Below are positions 1 through 8,447 of a stretch of DNA of 8,447 bases, one piece after another (the stretch's first letter is position 1; every line of letters begins with the position of its first letter). This DNA is from Nanopusillaceae archaeon (GTDB lineage Archaea > Nanobdellota > Nanobdellia > Nanobdellales > Nanobdellaceae), in contig JBMFJL010000023.1 in NCBI GenBank assembly GCA_049973735.1, forward strand, positions 1-8,447, given 5' to 3'. A program made the translations under genes and the position numbers. The notes under the pieces are model-generated. The model did no database searches. It saw only the letters and a list, made by a program, of their open reading frames with translations, and was not told where the DNA came from.

Positions 1-444
1 AATACAGACATACCATTGCCTACGGAATATAAGAGAGAACTTTTAGAAGAAAAGAAAAAACAAATTATCGAATATATTAGAAGAGTTGCAATGGATGCTA
101 AAACAAAAATGCCTTTAACATATGAAAGAGCAAAAGAGCTACTTGAAATGAGTAAATACAATGTAAATTTGAATGATCCTATAGAAAAACAAGCAATGGA
201 GGCTATAGAAAAGATAAGAAAATTTTATCCATTAAAAATAGAATATAAAAATATTAGAATAATAGTACCACCAGAAAAATATAAAATAATAGGAATTATA
301 AAAAATAAGTATAAGGTTATTAAAGAAGACTGGAGTGAAAATTATGTTGCTATTGTAGAAGTACCAATTGGTTTATTGTCAGAATTTTATTCAGATATTG
401 GAAAACTATGCGGAGATTTATGTACAATTGAAGAATTAAAATAA
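1..444 (+). CDS. SBDS/Sdo1-family ribosome-maturation protein, C-terminal portion (5' end outside the window)
   Basis: Frame 1 is open from nt 1 (NTDIPL precedes the TTG that the track uses as a start), so the gene is cut by the window edge. The translation is collinear by eye with domains II-III of archaeal SBDS proteins (EEKKKQIIEYIRR..., PLKIEYKNIRIIVPPE, VAIVEVPIGLLSEF). Stop TAA at 442-444. Confidence 0.8.
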   Translation, partial: NTDIPLPTEYKRELLEEKKKQIIEYIRRVAMDAKTKMPLTYERAKELLEMSKYNVNLNDPIEKQAMEAIEKIRKFYPLKIEYKNIRIIVPPEKYKIIGIIKNKYKVIKEDWSENYVAIVEVPIGLLSEFYSDIGKLCGDLCTIEELK

Positions 445-445
445 A

Positions 446-1084
446 TTATTTTTTCTCTTGTTTTTGGGATGAACCTCCAGATTCTTTAGAATCAGAATCA
501 CCAGATCCCATTAATATTATACCAGTTCCAATTAAGATAAAGAAAATAACTAGAAATAAAATATATGGATTAAAAGTTTGATAATAAAAGTAGGAGAGAG
601 GATTTGTCCCTAGAGATAATGATATAAAATAATCCTGATAAGCATAGAATAATGATAACAATGCAAAGACTACTAGAAATATAAATATTATTAAGGGTAA
701 ATATTTTGCAGCATCTTTTGATGTATCCTTTAATTGAGATGATGAAAATTCAAATACTTTGCCACCAGTAAATATATTTGCTATTAATAAGAAAAAGAAG
801 AATATTAATACAGTGGTAATTACAAATGAAAGAAAATATTGTGTAAATAATAATAATCCAGAAAAAGTAGATAAAAAGAATCCTATCGATACACCTAATA
901 TCAATGATATAGCATGTATTAAATTTTTAACATCTTTATCTTTATCTCCTCTACTCGATACATAAGATTCTAATAAGAATCTAATTGTTACATAAGATAT
1001 TGCAAAATAAAATAAAAATAAAAATATCAGACCAATACCTAAATTATTCATTATTGTAATTATTACATTAGCGAAAGATCCCAT
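446..1084 (-). CDS. Integral membrane protein of unknown function (about 5 TM helices, Ser/Gly/Asp/Lys-rich C-terminal tail)
   Basis: A 212-codon ORF is very unlikely by chance in AT-rich DNA, where stop codons are frequent. It has five long hydrophobic segments (e.g. LGIGLIFLFLFYFAISYV, LIHAISLILGVSIGFFLSTF, FVITTVLIFFFFLLIANIF, LPLIIFIFLVVFALLSLFY, YILFLVIFFILIGTGIILMG) and a tail GSGDSDSKESGGSSQKQEKK. I recognise no family motif. It lies 26 nt downstream of the GT3 synthase on the same strand. Confidence 0.75.
   Translation of the reverse strand: MGSFANVIITIMNNLGIGLIFLFLFYFAISYVTIRFLLESYVSSRGDKDKDVKNLIHAISLILGVSIGFFLSTFSGLLLFTQYFLSFVITTVLIFFFFLLIANIFTGGKVFEFSSSQLKDTSKDAAKYLPLIIFIFLVVFALLSLFYAYQDYFISLSLGTNPLSYFYYQTFNPYILFLVIFFILIGTGIILMGSGDSDSKESGGSSQKQEKK
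449..465 (+). terminator. Oligo-T tracts (T6 at 449-454, T5 at 461-465) just after the SBDS stop; candidate archaeal intrinsic terminator
   Basis: Archaeal RNA polymerase terminates at runs of at least 5 T. These tracts begin 5 nt after the TAA and lie inside the opposing gene's lysine-rich C-terminal codons. Confidence 0.4.
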
Positions 1085-1110
1085 ATTATATTTAAATACT
1101 TCTTAATACT

Positions 1111-2739
1111 TTAAATATTTTCATATATATTGAAATATTCTACTACATTATCTTTCCATGAAAACTTTTTGGCTATTTCAAACATCTGCTTTTTAATTTC
1201 TAACCTTTTATACATGTCAAAAGAATAATACTCTTTTATTTTATTAAGAACATTTTCTAAATCTTTTTCAAAATTAAATGGATCTACAGGTATTATAAAA
1301 TCACTTTTTATACCTTTATTTATTAAATTTCTATAAAATCCAGTTTTATTTGATATTATTATTGGAACAAAGTTGTAGAGAGCTTCTAGAGAGGTATATC
1401 CATATGGTTCGTATCTGGATAAAAATACTCCAAAATCAAATACTGGCAATAAATATTCCAGTTCTATATTAAATATTATATCGTTTCCAACATAAACAGG
1501 GGCATATATTATTTTTACATAATTTTTCTCATCATTAATCAAATTATATGATGTAATTTTTCTAATTATAAAATTTTCAGTTGTTATATGGGTAGCAATT
1601 GGTGGATTCTTATGTTTTATTCTATCTCTATTATCTAATATCCTTCTACCAGTGTATAAAGATCTTATTATGTTATAGTCATTTTCATATATGAACTTCT
1701 TTGTGTTTATATAATCTTTGTACAATCTTACAACATCTGGATCTATTCCCTTTGTTTCGTATGGAACAAATATAAATGCTACAGTATTTATTTTATTTTC
1801 TTCTAAATATTTTAAAAGATCAATAAATAAATCTATCCCTTTATTGTATGGTTCATATCTACCTATTGTATATAATAATAAATAATTGTCTGGCAAATCA
1901 TAATATGGATAAAAATACCATGTCAAAAATTCCTCTATCCATCTTTTTCCAATATTATAGTAATAAATTAATTCTTTTTCTTTTACATCAATATAGTTAT
2001 ATGTTACATAATCTGGTTTTCTTCCAAATATTTTAATTGCTTCTTCAGATAAATTATCCGAAACAGTTGTAAACACATCTGTATGTATTATTGTTGCTTT
2101 TTCTAATTGATGTTTGAAATGTATTCCTAACCTATAGGAGTCCTGATCCGGATTTATTTTATCCAAATATTCATATACATTAACATTTTTTTCCGATATA
2201 CTTCTACCAATTACAGTACCATGAATTGTAAATACAGTTTTATAATTCAATCCTTTCTTTTTTACATATAAAACTGTACCGCCAGATAACCATTCGTGCG
2301 CATGCAAAATTTTCTTTTCATTGAAAAAATAATTATCCAATTTTTCTAATAATAATCCTACAGATACTGACCATAACAGAGGTTCGTCAAATGTAAAATC
2401 TGAAAATAGAGAATCTATTTTAAACCATTCCCAGTATTTATACTTCCAATAATCCCTCTCCTTTTTGAAGAATTCATTATAATCAACTAGCAAAACTTGG
2501 GGTTTTCCTTCTATATTCCAATATCCATAATATATTTTTATTGGATCTAAATCTCTATTTATTTCTTTTATATATTCTGGGGCTTCTGTTTGAATAAAAT
2601 CAGAATTATTTTTATATGGCCCAATTAAAAAATAGTTATTACCATATTTTTCTACATAATATTTTGCCTTTGTTGATATTACAGTATATATTCCCCCTAC
2701 TTTATTACAAACTTCCCAGGATTGCTCGAATATTTTCAT
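1111..2739 (-). CDS. Glycogen synthase, eukaryote-type (CAZy GT3-like), compact 542-aa form
   Basis: The GT3 signature blocks appear in the same order as in animal and fungal glycogen synthases: IFEQSWEVCNKVGGIYTVISTKAKYY (N-terminus), HAHEWLSGG, FTIHGTVIGR, HQLEKATIIHTDVFTTVSDNLSEEA, GRYEPYNKGIDLFIDLL and FLSRYEPYGYTSLEALYNFVPIIISNKTGF. The ATG at 2739 overlaps the upstream stop (ATGA). Confidence 0.9.
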   Translation of the reverse strand: MKIFEQSWEVCNKVGGIYTVISTKAKYYVEKYGNNYFLIGPYKNNSDFIQTEAPEYIKEINRDLDPIKIYYGYWNIEGKPQVLLVDYNEFFKKERDYWKYKYWEWFKIDSLFSDFTFDEPLLWSVSVGLLLEKLDNYFFNEKKILHAHEWLSGGTVLYVKKKGLNYKTVFTIHGTVIGRSISEKNVNVYEYLDKINPDQDSYRLGIHFKHQLEKATIIHTDVFTTVSDNLSEEAIKIFGRKPDYVTYNYIDVKEKELIYYYNIGKRWIEEFLTWYFYPYYDLPDNYLLLYTIGRYEPYNKGIDLFIDLLKYLEENKINTVAFIFVPYETKGIDPDVVRLYKDYINTKKFIYENDYNIIRSLYTGRRILDNRDRIKHKNPPIATHITTENFIIRKITSYNLINDEKNYVKIIYAPVYVGNDIIFNIELEYLLPVFDFGVFLSRYEPYGYTSLEALYNFVPIIISNKTGFYRNLINKGIKSDFIIPVDPFNFEKDLENVLNKIKEYYSFDMYKRLEIKKQMFEIAKKFSWKDNVVEYFNIYENI

Positions 2740-3401
2740 CTAAATATTATATCTAATATATTTCTCTTCCTCTTTTTTCCAACTAATAAATATGCCAACT
2801 CATCTATATATTTTAATGCCTTCGATCTTTCTCTATAATATATTATTGGAGCATACTGATATTGGTATTCATTAAAATCTTTTATTATTGGAATTGTTGT
2901 GTATAATTCTTTTTCAAATACATCCTCAACAAAATCTATGTCTAAACTTCTATCATATTTGTTTAATATTATCTTAACCTTATTTTTATTTAAAAAACCG
3001 TATATTTTTTTGTTTACGTATAATGAATACAAATCAGGATTGATCACTAAGAATATTATATCAGATACATTATGGACTTTAATTATTAAATTTGGATCTG
3101 GAAATACATCAAATATTATATAATTGTAGTATTTACTTAGAATAGATAAATCATTTTCAAATCCTTCATAAAGACCATTTGTTATTTTCAAATGAAAGAA
3201 TGGTAATATCTTTATATCTTGCCATAATCTAGTATTTGATATTAATTTATCTTTTATATACATTAAATTTGGTGAATACATTCCATTTGTATCTATTAAT
3301 AATACTTTATAATCATAAAGTTTCTTTATATAAGCTGCTAAATTTATTGCTAAAGTAGTTTTTCCTACTCCTCCTTTCATAGATATGAATGAAACTATCA
3401 T
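2736..3401 (-). CDS. ParA/MinD-family (SIMIBI) P-loop ATPase with deviant Walker A
   Basis: Deviant Walker A with signature lysine SMKGGVGKTT (nt 3354-3380), Walker A' VLLIDTN and Walker B YIIFDVFP. Length is 221 aa, with no HTH domain and no CxxC motif. The C-terminus is a basic-hydrophobic tail, GKKRKRNILDIIFR. ATGA overlaps are present at both ends (3398-3401 and 2736-2739). Confidence 0.9.
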   Translation of the reverse strand: MIVSFISMKGGVGKTTLAINLAAYIKKLYDYKVLLIDTNGMYSPNLMYIKDKLISNTRLWQDIKILPFFHLKITNGLYEGFENDLSILSKYYNYIIFDVFPDPNLIIKVHNVSDIIFLVINPDLYSLYVNKKIYGFLNKNKVKIILNKYDRSLDIDFVEDVFEKELYTTIPIIKDFNEYQYQYAPIIYYRERSKALKYIDELAYLLVGKKRKRNILDIIFR

Positions 3402-3718
3402 AGTTCAAAATTTTTTATAAATTCTATTTCAGCCTCTTCCCTCCTATATTTTCTTTTGTTATATTTTTCGTAATTTTTCAAATATTCTTCCAAAATTTTT
3501 ATTACTTCTTCTTTATTTTTTGCTTCTTCAATTCTTTTAGCTAATCTTTCTTCTTTTAAAGATTCTCTTATCCAATTTGAAAAATGCTTTCCAGCAAAAT
3601 GATAATAGAAATCATCCTTACTAGAATTATATATCCATAAGAGTAAATCCTGCAAACCATATAACTTTTGTCCGTCGACAGTGATAAAAGCTTCTTTTTC
3701 ATTTGATACAACTATCAT
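3398..3718 (-). CDS. Small (106 aa) hypothetical protein: compact N-terminal domain plus highly charged helical C-terminal half; first gene of the operon
   Basis: The ORF sits directly after a TATA-like element, and its stop overlaps the ParA-like start (ATGA). The N-terminal part is FITVDGQKLYGLQDLLLWIYNSSKDDFYYHFAGKHFSNWIRESLKEERLAKRI, followed by the K/E/R-rich EEAKNKEEVIKILEEYLKNYEKYNKRKYRREEAEIEF. I cannot assign a family with confidence. Confidence 0.7.
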   Translation of the reverse strand: MIVVSNEKEAFITVDGQKLYGLQDLLLWIYNSSKDDFYYHFAGKHFSNWIRESLKEERLAKRIEEAKNKEEVIKILEEYLKNYEKYNKRKYRREEAEIEFIKNFEL

Positions 3719-3743
3719 AATAACTTTATATAGTTAGTTATTA
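3718..3743. repeat. Perfect 8-bp inverted repeat TAATAACT-N10-AGTTATTA bracketing the GH57 TATA box (candidate operator)
   Basis: The sequence at 3718-3725 (taataact) is the exact reverse complement of 3736-3743 (agttatta). The 10-nt spacer contains most of the TTTATATA box. Confidence 0.35.
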
Positions 3744-3754
3744 AAAAATATTTT
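3719..3754. promoter_or_regulatory. 36-nt divergent promoter region with two crossed TATA-like boxes (leaderless transcripts implied)
   Basis: TTTATATA at 3725-3732 is centred about 26.5 nt upstream of the plus-strand ATG at 3755. TTTTTTAA, read on the minus strand at 3748-3741, is centred about 26.5 nt upstream of the minus-strand ATG at 3718. This spacing matches the canonical archaeal TATA-to-TSS distance if transcription starts at or next to the ATG. Confidence 0.55.
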
Positions 3755-4933
3755 ATGGTAAATTTGGTCTTTTACTTCCATGCACATCAACCTAGAAGGA
3801 TAAGATACTATTCCTTCTTTGATATAGGATCAAAAAATTATTTCAACGATGAATTAAATAAAAGAATTCTTGATAGAGTAGTAATGAAATCTTATAAACC
3901 GGCATTAGAAATGTTTTACGATGCAATTACAAAATATGACTTGAAATTTTCTTTTTCAATATCCGGAACATTAATAGAACAATTAGAGCAATATCATCCT
4001 GAGATAATAGATCTTTGGAGAGAATTAATAAATACGGGAAATGTTGAAATTGTTTCTGAAACTTATTATCATTCTGTGGCATATTTAATAGATAAAGAAG
4101 AATTTATAGAACAAATAAAGTTACATAGAAAGAAAATAAAAGAAGTCTTTGGATATAAAACTAGATCTTTCAGAAATTTTGAATTGGTATTTAATAATGA
4201 TATTGGAAAAATAGTATATTCTTTGGGATTTGTATGTGCATTAACTGAAGGAACAGAAAAGATTCTTGGATGGAGGAGCCCAAATTATTTGTATAAACTT
4301 AAACATAACAACCTTAGATTATTATTAAGAAATTATAAACTTTCAGATGATATAGCATTTAGATTTACAAATAGAGAATGGTCTGAATATCCATTAACAG
4401 CAGATAAATATTATCTATGGTTAAAAAATACTCCTGGAGATGTCATAAATATATTTATGGATTTTGAAACCATTGGAGAACATATATGGAAGGAATCTGG
4501 AATATTTGAATTCTGGAAAAAATTATTAGAATATATTGGTAAAGAAAAATATTTCAATACAATGACTGTATCCGAAGCGGCTGAGAATCTAGAAGTAAAA
4601 GGAGAACTTGATATTAAAGAATTAATTTCCTGGGCAGATATTGAAACAGATCTATCAGCATGGTTGGGTGATAGCATACAAAGGGAAGCTTTAAATTATT
4701 TAAAAGAATTGTATAAGAAGAACAAAAATAATAAAGAAATATTAAACATACTAAGATATCTTTCTACTTCGGACAACTTCTATTATATGAGTTTAAAATA
4801 TAATGCAGATGGAGATGTACATAAATACTTTAGAGAAGAGGCATTTGCATCTCCATACGATTCCTTTATATCTTACATGAATATATTAAGAGATATAGAG
4901 TTATCTTACCAAACTATTGAAAATTTGAATTAA
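3755..4933 (+). CDS. Glycoside hydrolase family 57 enzyme, alpha-amylase-like subgroup
   Basis: The five GH57 conserved regions are recognisable in order: FHAHQPRR (nt 3779-3793 encode HAHQP), GNVEIVSETYYHS, FRNFELVF (candidate nucleophile Glu), FMDFETIGEH (candidate acid/base Asp) and STSDNFYYMS. At 392 aa it is shorter than GH57 branching enzymes. Confidence 0.85.
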   Translation: MVNLVFYFHAHQPRRIRYYSFFDIGSKNYFNDELNKRILDRVVMKSYKPALEMFYDAITKYDLKFSFSISGTLIEQLEQYHPEIIDLWRELINTGNVEIVSETYYHSVAYLIDKEEFIEQIKLHRKKIKEVFGYKTRSFRNFELVFNNDIGKIVYSLGFVCALTEGTEKILGWRSPNYLYKLKHNNLRLLLRNYKLSDDIAFRFTNREWSEYPLTADKYYLWLKNTPGDVINIFMDFETIGEHIWKESGIFEFWKKLLEYIGKEKYFNTMTVSEAAENLEVKGELDIKELISWADIETDLSAWLGDSIQREALNYLKELYKKNKNNKEILNILRYLSTSDNFYYMSLKYNADGDVHKYFREEAFASPYDSFISYMNILRDIELSYQTIENLN

Positions 4934-6100
4934 TTTTTCTACAGAATTTTTCCAAGATAAATTCTTTATATCTTCCAAAGTTAATTTTATCTCTATTTCT
5001 CCCAATTTTGGATATTCTAGTAAAGCTAGTATATAATTCGCCATTTTATCAACATCCCAAAAATCCACTTTCAATGCACTTTTTAATACTTCAGAAACAC
5101 CACTTTGTTTTGATATTATAATATAATTTTTATATCTCAATGCTTCAAATGGCGTTAAACCAAATGGTTCAGATACTGAAGGTAAAACAAATATATCAGA
5201 AATTGAATATAAATATTCTGCTAATTCATCATCAACCCAACCAGTAAAAACAACATTCTTAGATATATTAAGATCTGCAGCCATTTTTATTAATTTCTCT
5301 AACATTTCACCAGTTCCAGCAAAAATGAACAGTATATCTTTTCTTTTTTCCAATATTTTTTTTGCAGCTAATAATAAATAATCTGGTCCCTTATGCAATG
5401 TCATTCTTCCTAGATATAAAACTATCTTATATTTTTCATTTATTTTTGTTCTTATTTTTTCTTTTATACTAAAGTCGTCATCTGGTGCATTATAAATTAC
5501 CTCAATTTTTTCTCCAGGAACATAATAGTATTTTTCTAATATTTCTTTTTCCCTTTTACTTACTACAATTATCTTATCTGCCAACATAGAACCTTCTAGT
5601 TCAATTCCATAATCATAATCAATTAAGTATTTTAAGTATTCTGGATTTGCGCCAACCCTATCATATGCTAATGAATGAAAATGCACTACCAATGGTTTCT
5701 TATATATTTTCTTAATTTCCATCGCTGCTGGTAAAGTTAACCAATCATATGCATAAATAATATCAAAATCCAAGTTTAACTTCTTCAATAGGTCTATAAC
5801 CTTTTCTTTATACTCCATAACTGCTTTTTTATAGTCTATGATATTTCTCTTATATAAAGTAAGAGATTCGTACTTAAAATAATCTATATAACTCTTTAAT
5901 ATATTCATATTTAATCCAAAGATCATTGAATTTCCTATTTTTCCTTTCCAAAATTCTATAACATCCTTTGTCAAGTTCGGAATTATCAAATAAACTACAT
6001 TTCCAAATTTAGTAAGATATTTAAAATAATAATATGTGGCTTTCTCAAGTCCACCAGTTTTTTGAGGAAGTATCCCCCAAGATAAAAATAATATTTTCAT
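4901..6100 (-). CDS. glgA: Archaeal-type glycogen synthase / GT-B glycosyltransferase (GT5/GT4-like, GlgA-like)
   Basis: MKILFLSWGILPQKTGGLEKA carries the KTGGL nucleotide-sugar motif (nt 6047-6061). Other blocks are YAYDWLTLPAAMEIKKIYKKPLVVHFHSL, GRMTLHKGPDYLL and the E-x7-E block PSVSEPFGLTPFEALRY. These are collinear by eye with Pyrococcus-type glycogen synthase. I prefer the start at 6100 (MKILFLS) over the track's 6139; see the findings. Confidence 0.8.
   Translation of the reverse strand: MKILFLSWGILPQKTGGLEKATYYYFKYLTKFGNVVYLIIPNLTKDVIEFWKGKIGNSMIFGLNMNILKSYIDYFKYESLTLYKRNIIDYKKAVMEYKEKVIDLLKKLNLDFDIIYAYDWLTLPAAMEIKKIYKKPLVVHFHSLAYDRVGANPEYLKYLIDYDYGIELEGSMLADKIIVVSKREKEILEKYYYVPGEKIEVIYNAPDDDFSIKEKIRTKINEKYKIVLYLGRMTLHKGPDYLLLAAKKILEKRKDILFIFAGTGEMLEKLIKMAADLNISKNVVFTGWVDDELAEYLYSISDIFVLPSVSEPFGLTPFEALRYKNYIIISKQSGVSEVLKSALKVDFWDVDKMANYILALLEYPKLGEIEIKLTLEDIKNLSWKNSVEKLIQIFNSLVR
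4934..4951 (+). terminator. Oligo-T tracts (T5 at 4934-4938, T5 at 4947-4951) immediately after the GH57 stop; candidate terminator
   Basis: T-runs begin directly after the TAA at 4931-4933, inside the convergent glycosyltransferase coding sequence. Confidence 0.4.
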
Positions 6101-6153
6101 AAAGGTAATAATTTTTAAAATAGTTATAAAACTTTTCATAGAAAAATAACATT
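6101..6153. promoter_or_regulatory. Bidirectional promoter: one palindromic TATA core (TTATAA, 6124-6129) midway between divergent start codons
   Basis: The TTATAA centre (6126.5) is 26.5 nt from the minus-strand ATG at 6100 and 27.5 nt from the plus-strand ATG at 6154. Purine-rich BRE-like sequence flanks it on each side (GAAAAG on the minus strand at 6137-6132; AAAATAG on the plus strand at 6117-6123). Confidence 0.6.
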
Positions 6154-7788
6154 ATGATAAACGAAATGAAATTATCACATTTTGATTATTCCCTAATAAC
6201 TGAAGGAAATAATATTTTCATTTTACCTTTACTATATAGTAGTAGGTATTTCGGTTTATTATCTAGATATAACAACTTTTATATCAAAACTATAGATAGA
6301 ATAGAAAACATGAATTTAAAAAATAAAAAAATTGAAGAAATAAAATTAAAAGACTATAACGAATTAGAAATTTTGTATGAAGATAATAGTTGGGAAAATT
6401 ATAAATTATTAGATGGAAAATTAATATATAAAACTAATAGAGAAGCATATTTGAAGGTATATTTTGATGTAAGGCACTTATATGATATAGATGAATGGGG
6501 AAGGATATATAATTACAGAAAAATTAATGATAATTTAGTAGAAATTACTTTTAATAAAGGAGAAATAAATTATATTATTAGAATTAAAGACTTCATATAT
6601 CTATATGAAAATAATGAAAAATGGGTAAAAGTATATTATAATTATGATGAATATAGAAAATCTCCTCCATATGATAGGTACCTATATGTACCATTTACAT
6701 TTTTATCAAATAAATTAGAGATCATACTTTCTAGTAATATTAAAAATAATATAGATGAAGATAGATTTAACATTAACAAGCTAATAAAGAAAAGATTAGA
6801 ATCTTTTATTTATGATAATAAAATTGCTGCCGGATTTCCATGGTATTTCCAAGAGTGGACTAGGGATGTTCTAATTTCCTTACCAGGATTATATAAAGCA
6901 GGATTTAAAGATCTTGTAAAGAAAAAATTAATCGAATATTCAGAGTTATTTTTAGATGATGGAAGATTAAGAAATATAAACGGACAAAATATAGGAAATT
7001 CTGATGGATTAGGATTATATATAAAAAGATTATTTGATTTCAAAGATTTATTTGATTCATTTGAATTTAATAAACTTTTATCAAATGCATTAATAGCTTT
7101 GAATTCATACGAATACAATTATCTTGATGATAAATATTTCCTTTTTAGAGCGTATCCAAATGAAACTTGGATGGATACATTAAATAGACAGTATCCAATC
7201 GAAATCCAGTTTTTAATGATGGATGTCTATGATAATCTATACAATCATACAAAAAATATTGAATATAAAGAAAAGTTGGAAAAATTAAAGAATTCTGTAA
7301 AACTTTATTATCTATCTGATTCATCTTTATACGATGATTTGAAAGACAGAAAAATAAGATGTAACATATTTTTATCCTACTATTATTATCCAAAATTGTT
7401 CTCCAATATTGAATGGGAGAAAATATTTGACTATGCAATGTTACATTTATATCTAGACTGGGGTGGAATTTCAAGTCTATCAAAATTAGATAAAAACTTT
7501 ATAAAAGATACAAACGAAGACAATTACTTCCTGAATGAGGGAAAATCAATGCACAATGGAGATTCATGGATATATATAAATAATATTGCGGCTATATCAT
7601 TATATAAAGTAAATAAAGAGAAATATAGAGATGAAATAAATAAAATTTTAGAATCAGATTTACAATTAATTAAAATGATAGGAACATTACCTGAGAGATC
7701 TAGCGCCAGTAAATTAAAACCTGCAGGGGCCCTACATCAACTCTGGTCTTTAGCTACTTATATTGAATTAAAAGATGTGGTGGCATAA
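6154..7788 (+). CDS. Archaeal-type glycogen debranching enzyme (amylo-alpha-1,6-glucosidase, GDE_C-like (alpha/alpha)6 domain) with an unassigned N-terminal domain
   Basis: From about residue 225 it shows AAGFPWYFQEWTRDVLISLPGL (the family's PW(F/Y)..WGRD..I.LPGL-type motif), then WMDTL, HNGDSWIYINN and ALHQLWSLATYIEL near the C-terminus. Residues 1 to about 225 are N/K/Y/I-rich with no motif I recognise. Confidence 0.85.
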   Translation: MINEMKLSHFDYSLITEGNNIFILPLLYSSRYFGLLSRYNNFYIKTIDRIENMNLKNKKIEEIKLKDYNELEILYEDNSWENYKLLDGKLIYKTNREAYLKVYFDVRHLYDIDEWGRIYNYRKINDNLVEITFNKGEINYIIRIKDFIYLYENNEKWVKVYYNYDEYRKSPPYDRYLYVPFTFLSNKLEIILSSNIKNNIDEDRFNINKLIKKRLESFIYDNKIAAGFPWYFQEWTRDVLISLPGLYKAGFKDLVKKKLIEYSELFLDDGRLRNINGQNIGNSDGLGLYIKRLFDFKDLFDSFEFNKLLSNALIALNSYEYNYLDDKYFLFRAYPNETWMDTLNRQYPIEIQFLMMDVYDNLYNHTKNIEYKEKLEKLKNSVKLYYLSDSSLYDDLKDRKIRCNIFLSYYYYPKLFSNIEWEKIFDYAMLHLYLDWGGISSLSKLDKNFIKDTNEDNYFLNEGKSMHNGDSWIYINNIAAISLYKVNKEKYRDEINKILESDLQLIKMIGTLPERSSASKLKPAGALHQLWSLATYIELKDVVA

Positions 7789-8447
7789 ATACGGATTTAT
7801 AAGAAATCCACTGGATATAAGACCAAATGAAGATCTAGTTGGAGTAGATGATATAGTAAAAAAAGTAAAATATGCTATTAGAAATGGAGAAATATTTCTT
7901 CTATACGGACCTATTGGATCTGGAAAAACCTCATTAGCTTTTAAAATAAAGAAAGATCTATCAGAAGAATATAATGTAATCTATATAAATGGAGAATATG
8001 AAAAAGATATAGATAAAAAAATAGAAGAAGAATCCTATATAAAGTTTTTATTCTTTAAATTTAAGAATAAATTACCCATAGTTTTAATATTGGATGAATT
8101 TTACAATTTTCCAGAAGAGATATCTAAGAAATTAAAATATATGTATGATAATGGGATTGTATATTCAATAATGTTAATACAACCTTCTCCACAAATTATG
8201 AATGCAACAGTATCTTTCTTGAATAGATTATATGAAAAAATAGAAATGCATTTTCCATCAGAAGATGATATAATAAATCTAATAAATAAAAAACTAAAGA
8301 ATAAAATTGTTTTTGACGAAAATTTCTTAAGAAATATAATAAGAAAAAATAATAATAATGTAAGATCTATTTTTATAGAGCTAAATAATATTTTATCTAA
8401 CATGAAACATCCTGTAAAAGGGGTTATTAAGAGTAATATAGATACAC
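7775..8447 (+). CDS. AAA+/P-loop ATPase (ExeA/AAA_22- or ORC-like architecture), 3' end outside the window; NOT in the supplied ORF track
   Basis: My own translation from the ATG at 7775 is open for 224 codons to the window edge: MWWHKYGFIRNPLDIRPNEDLVGVDDIVKKVKYAIRNGEIFLLYGPIGSGKTSLA... It has Walker A GPIGSGKTS (7907-7933), Walker B VLILDEF (8081-8101) and a sensor-2-like NVRSIFIELNNIL. The start overlaps the debranching-enzyme 3' end by 14 nt. Confidence 0.8.
   Translation, partial: MWWHKYGFIRNPLDIRPNEDLVGVDDIVKKVKYAIRNGEIFLLYGPIGSGKTSLAFKIKKDLSEEYNVIYINGEYEKDIDKKIEEESYIKFLFFKFKNKLPIVLILDEFYNFPEEISKKLKYMYDNGIVYSIMLIQPSPQIMNATVSFLNRLYEKIEMHFPSEDDIINLINKKLKNKIVFDENFLRNIIRKNNNNVRSIFIELNNILSNMKHPVKGVIKSNIDT

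Follow-up and report, generated by a model that had tools for sequence, protein, structure and literature searches.

The glycogen island and its overlapping genes

We analysed an 8447-bp stretch of DNA (hereafter the window; contig JBMFJL010000023.1, assembly GCA_049973735.1) from a Nanopusillaceae archaeon. The window has a G+C content of about 25%, and it holds a compact Nanopusillaceae glycogen island. This study is about a group of minus-strand genes in the island, which encode in order a small protein of the DUF5752/OrfY family, an ATPase with the ParA/MinD fold, a GT3 glycogen synthase, and a polytopic membrane protein (Table 1). An earlier reading of this DNA, made from the letters only (the sequence-only reading), had proposed that the ATPase and an orphan small protein form a positioning module for the synthase or for glycogen granules. 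The gene order given there was borne out by the coordinates of the open reading frames (ORFs) and by the sequence. Both ATGA stop/start overlaps are real (3398-3401 and 2736-2739), and the spacer between the GT3 and membrane protein genes has 26 nt (1085-1110), as claimed. The length of 212 residues given for the ATPase is that of the membrane protein, and the ATPase has 221 residues.

Table 1. Genes and sequence elements of the window (positions in the 8447-bp stretch)
Feature	Position	Strand	Basis or remark
DUF5752/OrfY-like small protein, 106 aa	3398-3718	-	PF19027 sub-threshold; fold match 4CSO
Divergent archaeal MinD/FleN-type (ParA/MinD-fold) ATPase, 221 aa	2736-3401	-	CbiA E 2.7e-12, AAA_31 E 6e-12
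Deviant Walker A M-K-G-G-V-G-K-T-T, ATPase aa 8-16, with signature Lys9 and Lys14	3354-3380	-	
Switch I D37-T38-N39 of ATPase; Asn in place of the canonical second (water-activating) Asp	3285-3293	-	
ATPase C-terminal tail G-KKRKR-NILDIIFR, aa 208-221, candidate membrane-targeting sequence	2739-2780	-	
GT3 (eukaryote-type) glycogen synthase, 542 aa	1111-2739	-	PF05693 (Glycogen_syn), E 3.2e-71
Polytopic membrane protein, 212 aa	446-1084	-	Lineage-specific; no family match in Pfam/NCBIfam
SBDS, C-terminal part	16-444	+	
Divergent intergenic region, 36 nt, holding the TTTATATA element	3719-3754	.	Sequence only
GH57 alpha-glucan-active enzyme	3755-4933	+	PF03065, E 3.8e-78
GT4/GT5-type glycogen/starch synthase-like glycosyltransferase	4901-6139	-	Glycos_transf_1 E 1.2e-33, Glyco_transf_5 E 6.4e-12
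GDE_C amylo-alpha-1,6-glucosidase-like debranching enzyme	6154-7788	+	PF06202, E 6e-18
AAA_14 P-loop gene, start portion (MWWHKYGF...GPIGSGKTS...)	7775-8447	+	

To judge the overlaps, other same-strand neighbour pairs were counted in eight related loci. We found that 20 of these 58 pairs overlap (34%), five of them by 4 nt, and the ATGA overlap alone was therefore rejected as strong evidence of coupling. Meanwhile, the two junctions of the trio overlap in 15 of 16 cases in eight lineages, 14 times by 4 nt. Because the lineages are related and not independent samples, this excess is supportive rather than a clean statistic. On these sequence grounds, the DUF5752, ATPase and GT3 genes apparently form a conserved, co-translated unit.

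The membrane protein was also considered as a core member of the unit. This was rejected because two inserted genes part its gene from GT3 in two lineages (L010, 5242-6989, and L093, 8667-10357; L numbers denote the loci compared). The inserted genes encode an AI-2E-type transporter and a KaiC-like protein (PF06745 and DUF7125). DUF5752 domains are fused to KaiC-like ATPases elsewhere, so a link between the DUF5752 and KaiC-like proteins is possible. The membrane protein gave no significant match in Pfam or NCBIfam. Its orthologue in Nanopusillus acidilobi is annotated as an uncharacterised membrane protein, with an adjacent column entry of "5" that we read as five transmembrane segments.

Conservation of the trio and its recurrence in a second lineage

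All 11 Nanopusillaceae lineages that we compared have the trio (the window, L001, L003, L005, L007, L008, L009, L010, L012, L013, and L093), although among them the identity of the ATPase to that of the window falls to about 36%. In L010 and L093, the trio and its overlaps are intact despite the insertions downstream of GT3. Furthermore, every ATPase orthologue with enough sequence context sits inside a glycogen cluster.

To look beyond this family, 80 GT3 loci were taken from species-representative genomes, and their six-frame ORFs were scanned with our own profiles. A general linkage between GT3 and ParA/MinD genes was rejected, with an adjacent ATPase in only one of the 79 non-Nanopusillaceae GT3 loci (L049). 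In L014, L051, and L052, ordinary ParA/MinD genes lie 0.7-4 kb from GT3, which is about background. Thus, the synteny expected by the sequence-only reading holds within Nanopusillaceae and recurs in a second DPANN lineage, whereas GT3 elsewhere stands without an adjacent ATPase.

The second lineage consists of L049 and its metagenomic relatives L094, L095, L097, and L104, with ATPases of 70-80% identity. The first four loci have the order GT4/5, GH57, DUF5752, a long DUF5752 protein, a MinD-like ATPase joined by an ATGA overlap, and GT3. Of this cluster, L104 keeps only the 3' end of the ATPase gene and GT3. The nearest relatives of these ATPases (46-59% identity) that have enough flank are L101 and L102, with at least 4 kb on each side. 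Neither has glycogen genes there, and their ATPase neighbours are AsnC-type regulators, NUDIX, and HIT genes.

Neighbour-joining (NJ) trees were built with 100 bootstraps, with capped distances for the ATPase. In the ATPase tree, the Nanopusillaceae clade was recovered in 100 of 100 replicates and the L049 group in 79, and the two were joined in none. In the GT3 tree, the L049 group (100/100) was placed next to clusters of Altiarchaeales with DUF5752 and GT3 but no ATPase, and it was grouped with Nanopusillaceae in 0 of 100 replicates. A single origin of the two ATPase-bearing clusters is therefore unsupported by either tree, and the simplest reading would be that MinD-like genes were inserted twice, independently, at one and the same DUF5752/GT3 junction. 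Such insertions are hard to explain without a functional connection.

In L049, the long DUF5752 protein (7733-8842) contains an extended acidic stretch of low complexity, and its last residues are ...LHLKRVFK. The ATPase (8839-9615) ends in ...SKIKRVFKK. The C-terminal amphipathic motif of this ATPase is thus nearly identical to that of its upstream DUF5752 neighbour.

Family, motifs, and tail of the ATPase

The ATPase scored below the cutoff of every NCBIfam subfamily model, including the ParA partition model NF041546 (42.8 bits, cutoff 180), the archaeal MinD model TIGR01969 (42 bits, cutoff 201.75), and the BcsQ model TIGR03371 (34 bits, cutoff 157.85). The Pfam BcsQ model PF06564 matched at 23.7 bits (cutoff 21.3), over the P-loop residues 3-39 only. 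TIGR01969 was the best model for the deep-branching orthologue of L010 (65.5 bits) and for the ATPase of L049 (163.8 bits). The close homologues of the ATPase, at 62-68% identity, all come from Nanopusillus, Nanobsidianus, Nanobdella, and related bins. The next group has about 42-55% identity, and beyond those the identity is at most 31%.

The best sequence match in PDB was SegA of Sulfolobus (7DUT, E = 7.5e-7, full length). An AlphaFold2 (AF2) model was obtained with a predicted local distance difference test score (pLDDT) of 91. Its top Foldseek matches were the MinD structures 4v02, 1g3q, and 1ion (from Aquifex, Pyrococcus, and Archaeoglobus), with E values of about 1e-11 and template modelling (TM) scores of 0.74-0.78. 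ParA, FlhG, BcsQ, and SegA structures came close behind, and FleN was also among the fold matches. In addition, the N. acidilobi orthologue Nps_00380 was assigned to arCOG00589 (Wurch 2016), which is the FleN/MinD family of regulatory ATPases. Because the nearest folds are MinD and the C-terminal tail is conserved, basic, and amphipathic, we assign the ATPase to the MinD type, and by sequence and predicted fold it is MinD/FleN-like rather than ParA-like. The earlier description as a ParA/MinD-type ATPase therefore stands for the fold, the signature lysine, and the junction with GT3, but not for a ParA type.

The ATPase has the signature Lys9, the Walker A residues Lys14/Thr15, Asp37, and the Walker B residue Asp98, and K9, G10, G11, G13, and K14 are invariant in the alignment (A6). 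Position 39 is equivalent to D40 of MinD, D44 of Soj, and C39 of BcsQ. It is Asn in the window and in nearly all orthologues and Cys in L093, in a register that rests on the MAFFT alignment and on the AF2 strand 33-37 (beta-2), which ends at D37. Switch I reads D37-T-N39-G in the window, D-[LMA]-D-P-Q in bacterial ParAs of the same alignment, and D-G-D or D-G-N in archaeal MinDs. Furthermore, all DPANN MinD-like proteins examined have Asn at the equivalent position. The sequence-only reading had seen every catalytic motif in this protein. We confirmed the signature lysine, the Walker A and B motifs, and Asp37, but the water-activating Asp of switch I is replaced by Asn39. BcsQ, with Cys or Ser at the water-activating position, was isolated as a stable ATP-bound dimer (PMC7840130). 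The ATPase of L093 (6324-7004) reads V-I-D-L-C-G at switch I, and Cys is also the residue of enterobacterial BcsQ.

The C-terminus of every ATPase orthologue consists of a basic cluster and, after it, a short amphipathic segment (GKKRKRNILDIIFR in the window), and the hydrophobic moment of the tail is 0.65-0.86 among them. In the AF2 model, the tail lies outside the core fold with low pLDDT and has a short helix at residues 215-219. MinD-like ATPases bind the membrane with a C-terminal amphipathic helix, whereas ParA-like ATPases use a basic DNA-binding surface (PMC11407121). The tail is thus a candidate MinD-type membrane-targeting sequence. In addition, both glycogen-linked ATPase clades end in a basic, amphipathic tail, whereas their non-glycogen relatives end differently.

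The small protein and its family in other glycogen clusters

A single-sequence search with the small protein found only ten relatives, all from Nanopusillaceae. However, it is not the orphan that it had been taken for. A family profile retrieved 1055 proteins at E <= 1e-3 from 1.84 billion representative proteins. Many of them have two tandem domains of about 80 residues, and some are fused to larger proteins, with KaiC-like, HerA-like, and ABC-2 proteins as occasional partners. PF19027 (DUF5752) was found in 54 of the 66 larger matches (best E 9e-18). The window protein itself reaches 21.3 bits against PF19027, below the Pfam gathering cutoff of 23, and seven of ten orthologues match it at E <= 0.1 (best E 1.2e-5). 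Profile searches thus led to DUF5752 for the small protein and to no family for the membrane protein. The cluster names of the DUF5752 relatives are all "hypothetical".

In the AF2 model of the small protein (pLDDT 90), residues 1 to about 65 form a beta-hairpin and four short helices, and a long K/E-rich C-terminal helix follows at residues 69-104. The top Foldseek match was 4CSO, the OrfY protein of Thermoproteus tenax, with a probability of 0.99 and a root-mean-square deviation of 2.0-2.4 Å over about 81 columns. After OrfY, Foldseek gave no significant match, and no DNA-binding fold was recognised. Meanwhile, a profile of single-domain relatives (A5) matched both repeats of 4cso_A (E 8.6e-5) through the motif N-D-F-x-x-W...L-A. 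The T. tenax orfY gene reportedly lies directly upstream of treT. The product of treT is a trehalose synthase of the GT-B fold that uses nucleoside diphosphate (NDP)-glucose. If this gene order is right, a tie to alpha-glucoside synthesis would recur within the family. In the literature searched, we found no paper on OrfY, DUF5752, or 4CSO, and OrfY is unmentioned in Zaparty 2013 and Stracke 2020.

Outside Nanopusillaceae, we found 32 DUF5752-like ORFs in 18 loci. Most of these loci belong to DPANN archaea, Woesearchaeota-type and others, and the rest to Altiarchaeales and to one bin labelled Saccharibacteria. All 32 ORFs share their strand with a GH57 or GT3 gene that is no more than about 730 bp away, and just 24% of the searched DNA falls within this distance of such a core gene. 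The usual arrangement is GT4/5 and GH57, then one to three DUF5752 genes, and then GT3. An adjacent ATPase occurs in only one of the 18 loci (L049), and 69 unrelated ParA/MinD control loci gave no DUF5752 match. Because the DUF5752 genes adjoin GH57 and GT3 elsewhere, nearly always without an adjacent ATPase, the protein is best seen as an accessory of the GH57/GT3 machinery. The DUF5752 family is a glycogen-cluster accessory and not a private partner of the ATPase, so the role of a ParA-specific partner, suggested by the sequence-only reading, falls away with the 17 loci that have no adjacent ATPase. That reading had also considered that the small protein might belong to a family with a known unrelated function. 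This was borne out in part, since a family was indeed found, but its contexts, alpha-glucan and reportedly trehalose synthesis, are not unrelated.

Other genes of the glycogen clusters

The GT3 protein of the window matched PF05693 with 241.2 bits (cutoff 27) over residues 5-469, and the GT-B motifs H-E-W-L and F-P-S-x-Y-E-P-[WFY]-G-Y are conserved. We found 1840 GT3 homologues, in Nanopusillaceae, Woesearchaeota, Pacearchaeota, and Parcubacteria. GT3 glycogen synthase was already known in Nanobdellota (K00693 in 55% of Woesearchaeales), and the glycogen genes of Nanopusillus have been discussed earlier (Wurch 2016). The GT4/5-GH57-GT3 core is common to archaea and bacteria. In Bacteroidota (L055-L090), GT3 lies within a fusion of about 1400 residues, which is preceded by GT4/5 and GH57 and is without DUF5752 or the ATPase. 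In L011 (8785-11504) and L049 (11510-16782), a GalT/HIT-like nucleotidyltransferase follows GT3. By reading of the translations, L049 further has a phosphoglucomutase-like gene, GDE, and a glucokinase-like gene. The L049/L011-type cluster thus looks like a complete module from NDP-glucose to glycogen, without a counterpart in the Nanopusillaceae island.

In the window, the start codons of the small-protein operon and of GH57 diverge only 36 nt apart, so the two are probably under one control region, and the spacer is presumably their shared promoter. Unlike this divergent layout, GH57, DUF5752, and GT3 are all on one strand in other DPANN archaea. GH57 (+) and GT4/5 (-) converge, and their 3' ends share 33 nt (4901-4933). 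Relatives show similar overlaps (e.g., L001, 6478-6519). In addition, the first 14 nt of the AAA_14 P-loop gene lie within the end of the GDE gene. The full AAA_14 protein of relatives has about 305 residues, with a C-terminal DNA-binding domain of the TrmB/HTH_5/MarR type, and its gene always follows GDE. From its domains, the AAA_14-HTH (helix-turn-helix) protein may regulate transcription of the glycogen island in an ATP-dependent way.

Interpretation

We propose, with a probability of about 0.4, that the DUF5752-ATPase-GT3 unit serves the glycogen synthase as a nucleotide-gated membrane scaffold or switch of the BcsRQ kind. The operon would supply, in order, the DUF5752 protein, the MinD-type ATPase, and GT3, usually followed by the small polytopic membrane protein. 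In the ATP-bound state, the ATPase would form a sandwich dimer through the signature Lys9, and the dimer would present its two basic, amphipathic tails to the cytoplasmic membrane. Because the water-activating Asp of switch I is missing (Asn39), the ATPase would be slow and partner-triggered, a scaffold of the BcsQ/FleN kind and not a fast oscillator. A probable role of the DUF5752 protein is to link the ATPase with the synthase or with the nascent glucan. The outcome may be ATP-dependent recruitment or retention of the synthase or the particle at the membrane, or ATP-gating of synthase activity. A more specific version is tentative and rather unlikely to hold in full. It would make the MinD ATPase and the DUF5752 adaptor a dedicated organiser of glycogen synthesis, acting as a membrane tether or switch of GT3, recruited twice in DPANN archaea, and giving DUF5752 its first function.

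Several points weigh against the scaffold proposal. The evidence is genomic, and dimerisation, membrane binding, protein contacts, and an effect on glycogen are what we infer from it. The assignment of Asn39 depends on the register, and an ungapped HMMER alignment with SegA shifts it by two residues, so that D37 stands opposite the second Asp of SegA. The membrane-targeting role of the tail is suggested by a sequence pattern. Most archaeal and bacterial GT3 clusters elsewhere are without such an ATPase, and the NJ trees behind the two insertions are rough, with long branches. Furthermore, the region of SBDS, proteasome alpha, TFIIB, and Lon is also syntenic family-wide. Because the whole region is syntenic and overlaps are common, conservation of the trio within the family is weak evidence alone. 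Proteome data of N. acidilobi give no values for the ATPase, the small protein, or GH57. The GT3 and GT4/5 proteins were detected there, and the detection of GT3 counts in favour of the proposal. The annotations in N. acidilobi are "uncharacterized protein" and "CobQ/CobB/MinD/ParA ATPase" only.

The same synteny could mean that the place of the ATPase is a coincidence. It would then be a housekeeping MinD/SegA-like protein for the division site, the chromosome, or the archaellum, held beside the glycogen genes by genome compaction. In its favour, family-wide synteny extends over all 15 kb of the neighbourhood, genes often overlap in these compact genomes, SegA (7DUT) is the best PDB sequence match and of equal size, and arCOG00589 members are general regulators with many paralogues. 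We nevertheless consider this explanation improbable. The trio survives rearrangements of its flanks, the orthologues with enough context are all in the cluster, and an unrelated MinD-like clade occupies exactly the same slot in another DPANN lineage. In addition, another MinD-like paralogue of arCOG00589 (Nps_03280) lies elsewhere in the 606-kb genome of N. acidilobi, where it follows a "flagella biosynthesis" entry of the gene list by a few genes. The copy in the glycogen cluster therefore need not be the housekeeping one. The entry before Nps_03280 is also an "uncharacterized protein" (Nps_03275-Nps_03280; Wurch 2016, supplementary file 2).

An alternative that we hold to be equally improbable is a regulatory pair, in which the DUF5752 protein is a regulator and the ATPase modulates it, like FleN/FleQ or Soj/Spo0J, so that the energy status sets the expression of glycogen genes. 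The molecule name of 4CSO given by its PDB depositors is "ORFY PROTEIN, TRANSCRIPTION FACTOR". FleN structures are among the fold matches of the ATPase, arCOG00589 ATPases are described as regulators linked to transcription factors, and the 36-nt divergent control region is shared with GH57. However, no DNA-binding fold was recognised in the small protein, for which Foldseek gave nothing significant after OrfY. It would be unusual for a dedicated transcription factor to occur in two or three tandem copies per cluster or to be fused to KaiC-like, HerA-like, and ABC-2 proteins, as DUF5752 is, and a candidate regulator with a TrmB-type HTH is already beside the cluster.

A nucleoid-based Brownian ratchet of the ParA type would space granules or synthase as McdA/McdB does, with the 106-residue protein as the adaptor that stimulates the ATPase. 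This is less likely still, because the ATPase has MinD features, DUF5752 occurs without an adjacent ATPase elsewhere, and the cells are cocci of only 100-300 nm (Wurch 2016), which leaves little room for gradient-based spacing. The tail and the nearest folds are of the MinD type, the score is below the ParA partition cutoff, and the replaced catalytic Asp argues against fast turnover. DUF5752 lies beside GT3/GH57 in 18 other loci, often in two or three tandem copies and in 17 of them without an adjacent ATPase. The intact signature lysine and Walker motifs would nevertheless suit such a ratchet, as would the small charged protein encoded directly upstream with a 4-nt overlap and the DUF5752 gene that directly precedes the ATPase in both ATPase-bearing lineages.

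Very improbable is a maturation or chaperone NTPase of the SIMIBI class (Mrp/NBP35, CooC, HypB, or Get3-like) that folds, loads, or inserts a client, for example by inserting the membrane protein or assembling a GT3 oligomer. In its favour are weak Pfam matches to PF10609 (the NUBPL/Mrp-type "ParA") and ArsA/Get3, HypB and NifH-type structures among the distant fold matches, and the membrane protein often encoded downstream. However, those Pfam matches cover the P-loop region only, no metal-binding CxxC motif is visible in the ATPase alignment, GT3 enzymes are not known to have a cofactor that needs insertion, and the membrane protein gene is not strictly linked.

If the scaffold proposal is true, the BcsQ principle, in which an ATPase scaffold controls a glucan synthase, would be extended to a storage polysaccharide inside the cell and to the archaeal domain. 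Spatial organisation in prokaryotic cells is mainly the work of ParA/MinD ATPases, and in the more specific version the glycogen synthase or particle would be a new class of client for them. A 2024 review of ParA/MinD systems does not mention glycogen among the cargos (PMC11407121), and we found no ParA/MinD-type system for glycogen described in the literature searched, which agrees with what the sequence-only reading had said. In that version, DUF5752 would also gain its first function, as an accessory of GT-B enzymes that form alpha-glucosides. The DUF5752/OrfY family, which is widespread, has a solved structure, and is fused to many ATPases, gains a concrete and testable context from this work. 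Because these genomes have only about 0.6 Mb, a retained extra gene is unlikely to be idle. The symbionts are without their own ATP-generating machinery, and glycogen was proposed as their sole energy buffer when detached from the host (Wurch 2016). For this reason, ATP-gated control of glycogen would bear on the symbiont lifestyle.

Comparison with known systems

OrfY shares its fold and the region of the H...N-D-F..W...L-A motif with the small protein of the window. However, OrfY has two repeats (216 residues), whereas the window protein has one repeat and a long charged helix. In addition, the N-D-F of OrfY is replaced by K/D/N-H-F in the small proteins of Nanopusillaceae.

SegA of the SegA/SegB system of Sulfolobus (7DUT) has 220 residues compared with 221 in the window ATPase (TM score 0.76), and a small partner gene is adjacent in both systems. 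Unlike the window ATPase, SegA reads D-L-D-P at switch I, which is the canonical form, and within the aligned region it shows no amphipathic tail at the C-terminus. Furthermore, the gene order is opposite, with the partner upstream in the window, and the context is glycogen genes. The small gene of the window is DUF5752 and does not belong to SegB or to any known ParB or ParG family.

In McdA/McdB and the ParA cargo systems, an ATPase of the A/D family and a small partner are encoded beside metabolic cargo genes (PMC11407121), as in the window. By this analogy, positioning of a storage or metabolic body by the window unit is conceivable. However, McdA works on the nucleoid, whereas the window ATPase has membrane-type features and a replaced switch I Asp. 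The partner specificity of the McdB type is not found here either, because DUF5752 occurs in 17 other loci without an adjacent ATPase.

The archaeal MinD/FleN proteins (arCOG00589 and TIGR01969; e.g., MinD4 of Haloferax, PMC11407121) share with the window ATPase the fold and a deviant Walker A with the signature Lys. The D-x-N switch I of DPANN MinD-like proteins and a C-terminal amphipathic tail are also common to both. Nevertheless, the window ATPase is very divergent, about 30 residues shorter, and forms a long-branch clade. Archaeal MinD/FleN genes stand alone or near archaellum or pilus genes, whereas the window ATPase lies in a glycogen synthase operon.

BcsR-BcsQ-BcsA (PMC7840130) has the same gene logic as the window, with a small protein followed by a MinD/SIMIBI-fold ATPase and a glucan synthase. 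Both ATPases have a non-acidic residue at the water-activating position of switch I (C39 or Ser in BcsQ, N39 in the window and Cys in L093), and BcsQ structures are among the Foldseek matches of the window ATPase. BcsQ forms a stable ATP-bound dimer and scaffold that controls the synthase, and by analogy the same may be expected of the window ATPase. However, BcsQ is without the signature lysine that the window ATPase has, and the two are not orthologous (34 bits against the TIGR03371 cutoff of 157.85). BcsA is a membrane GT2 beta-glucan synthase, whereas the client in the window is a soluble GT-B enzyme, the GT3 alpha-1,4-glucan synthase. BcsR is unrelated to the DUF5752 partner, and the window unit is without a cyclic di-GMP or BcsE component. 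Thus, the likeness to BcsRQ is a resemblance of design, not orthology, and the comparison suggests that what is new here is a MinD/BcsQ-like scaffold ATPase with a new client.

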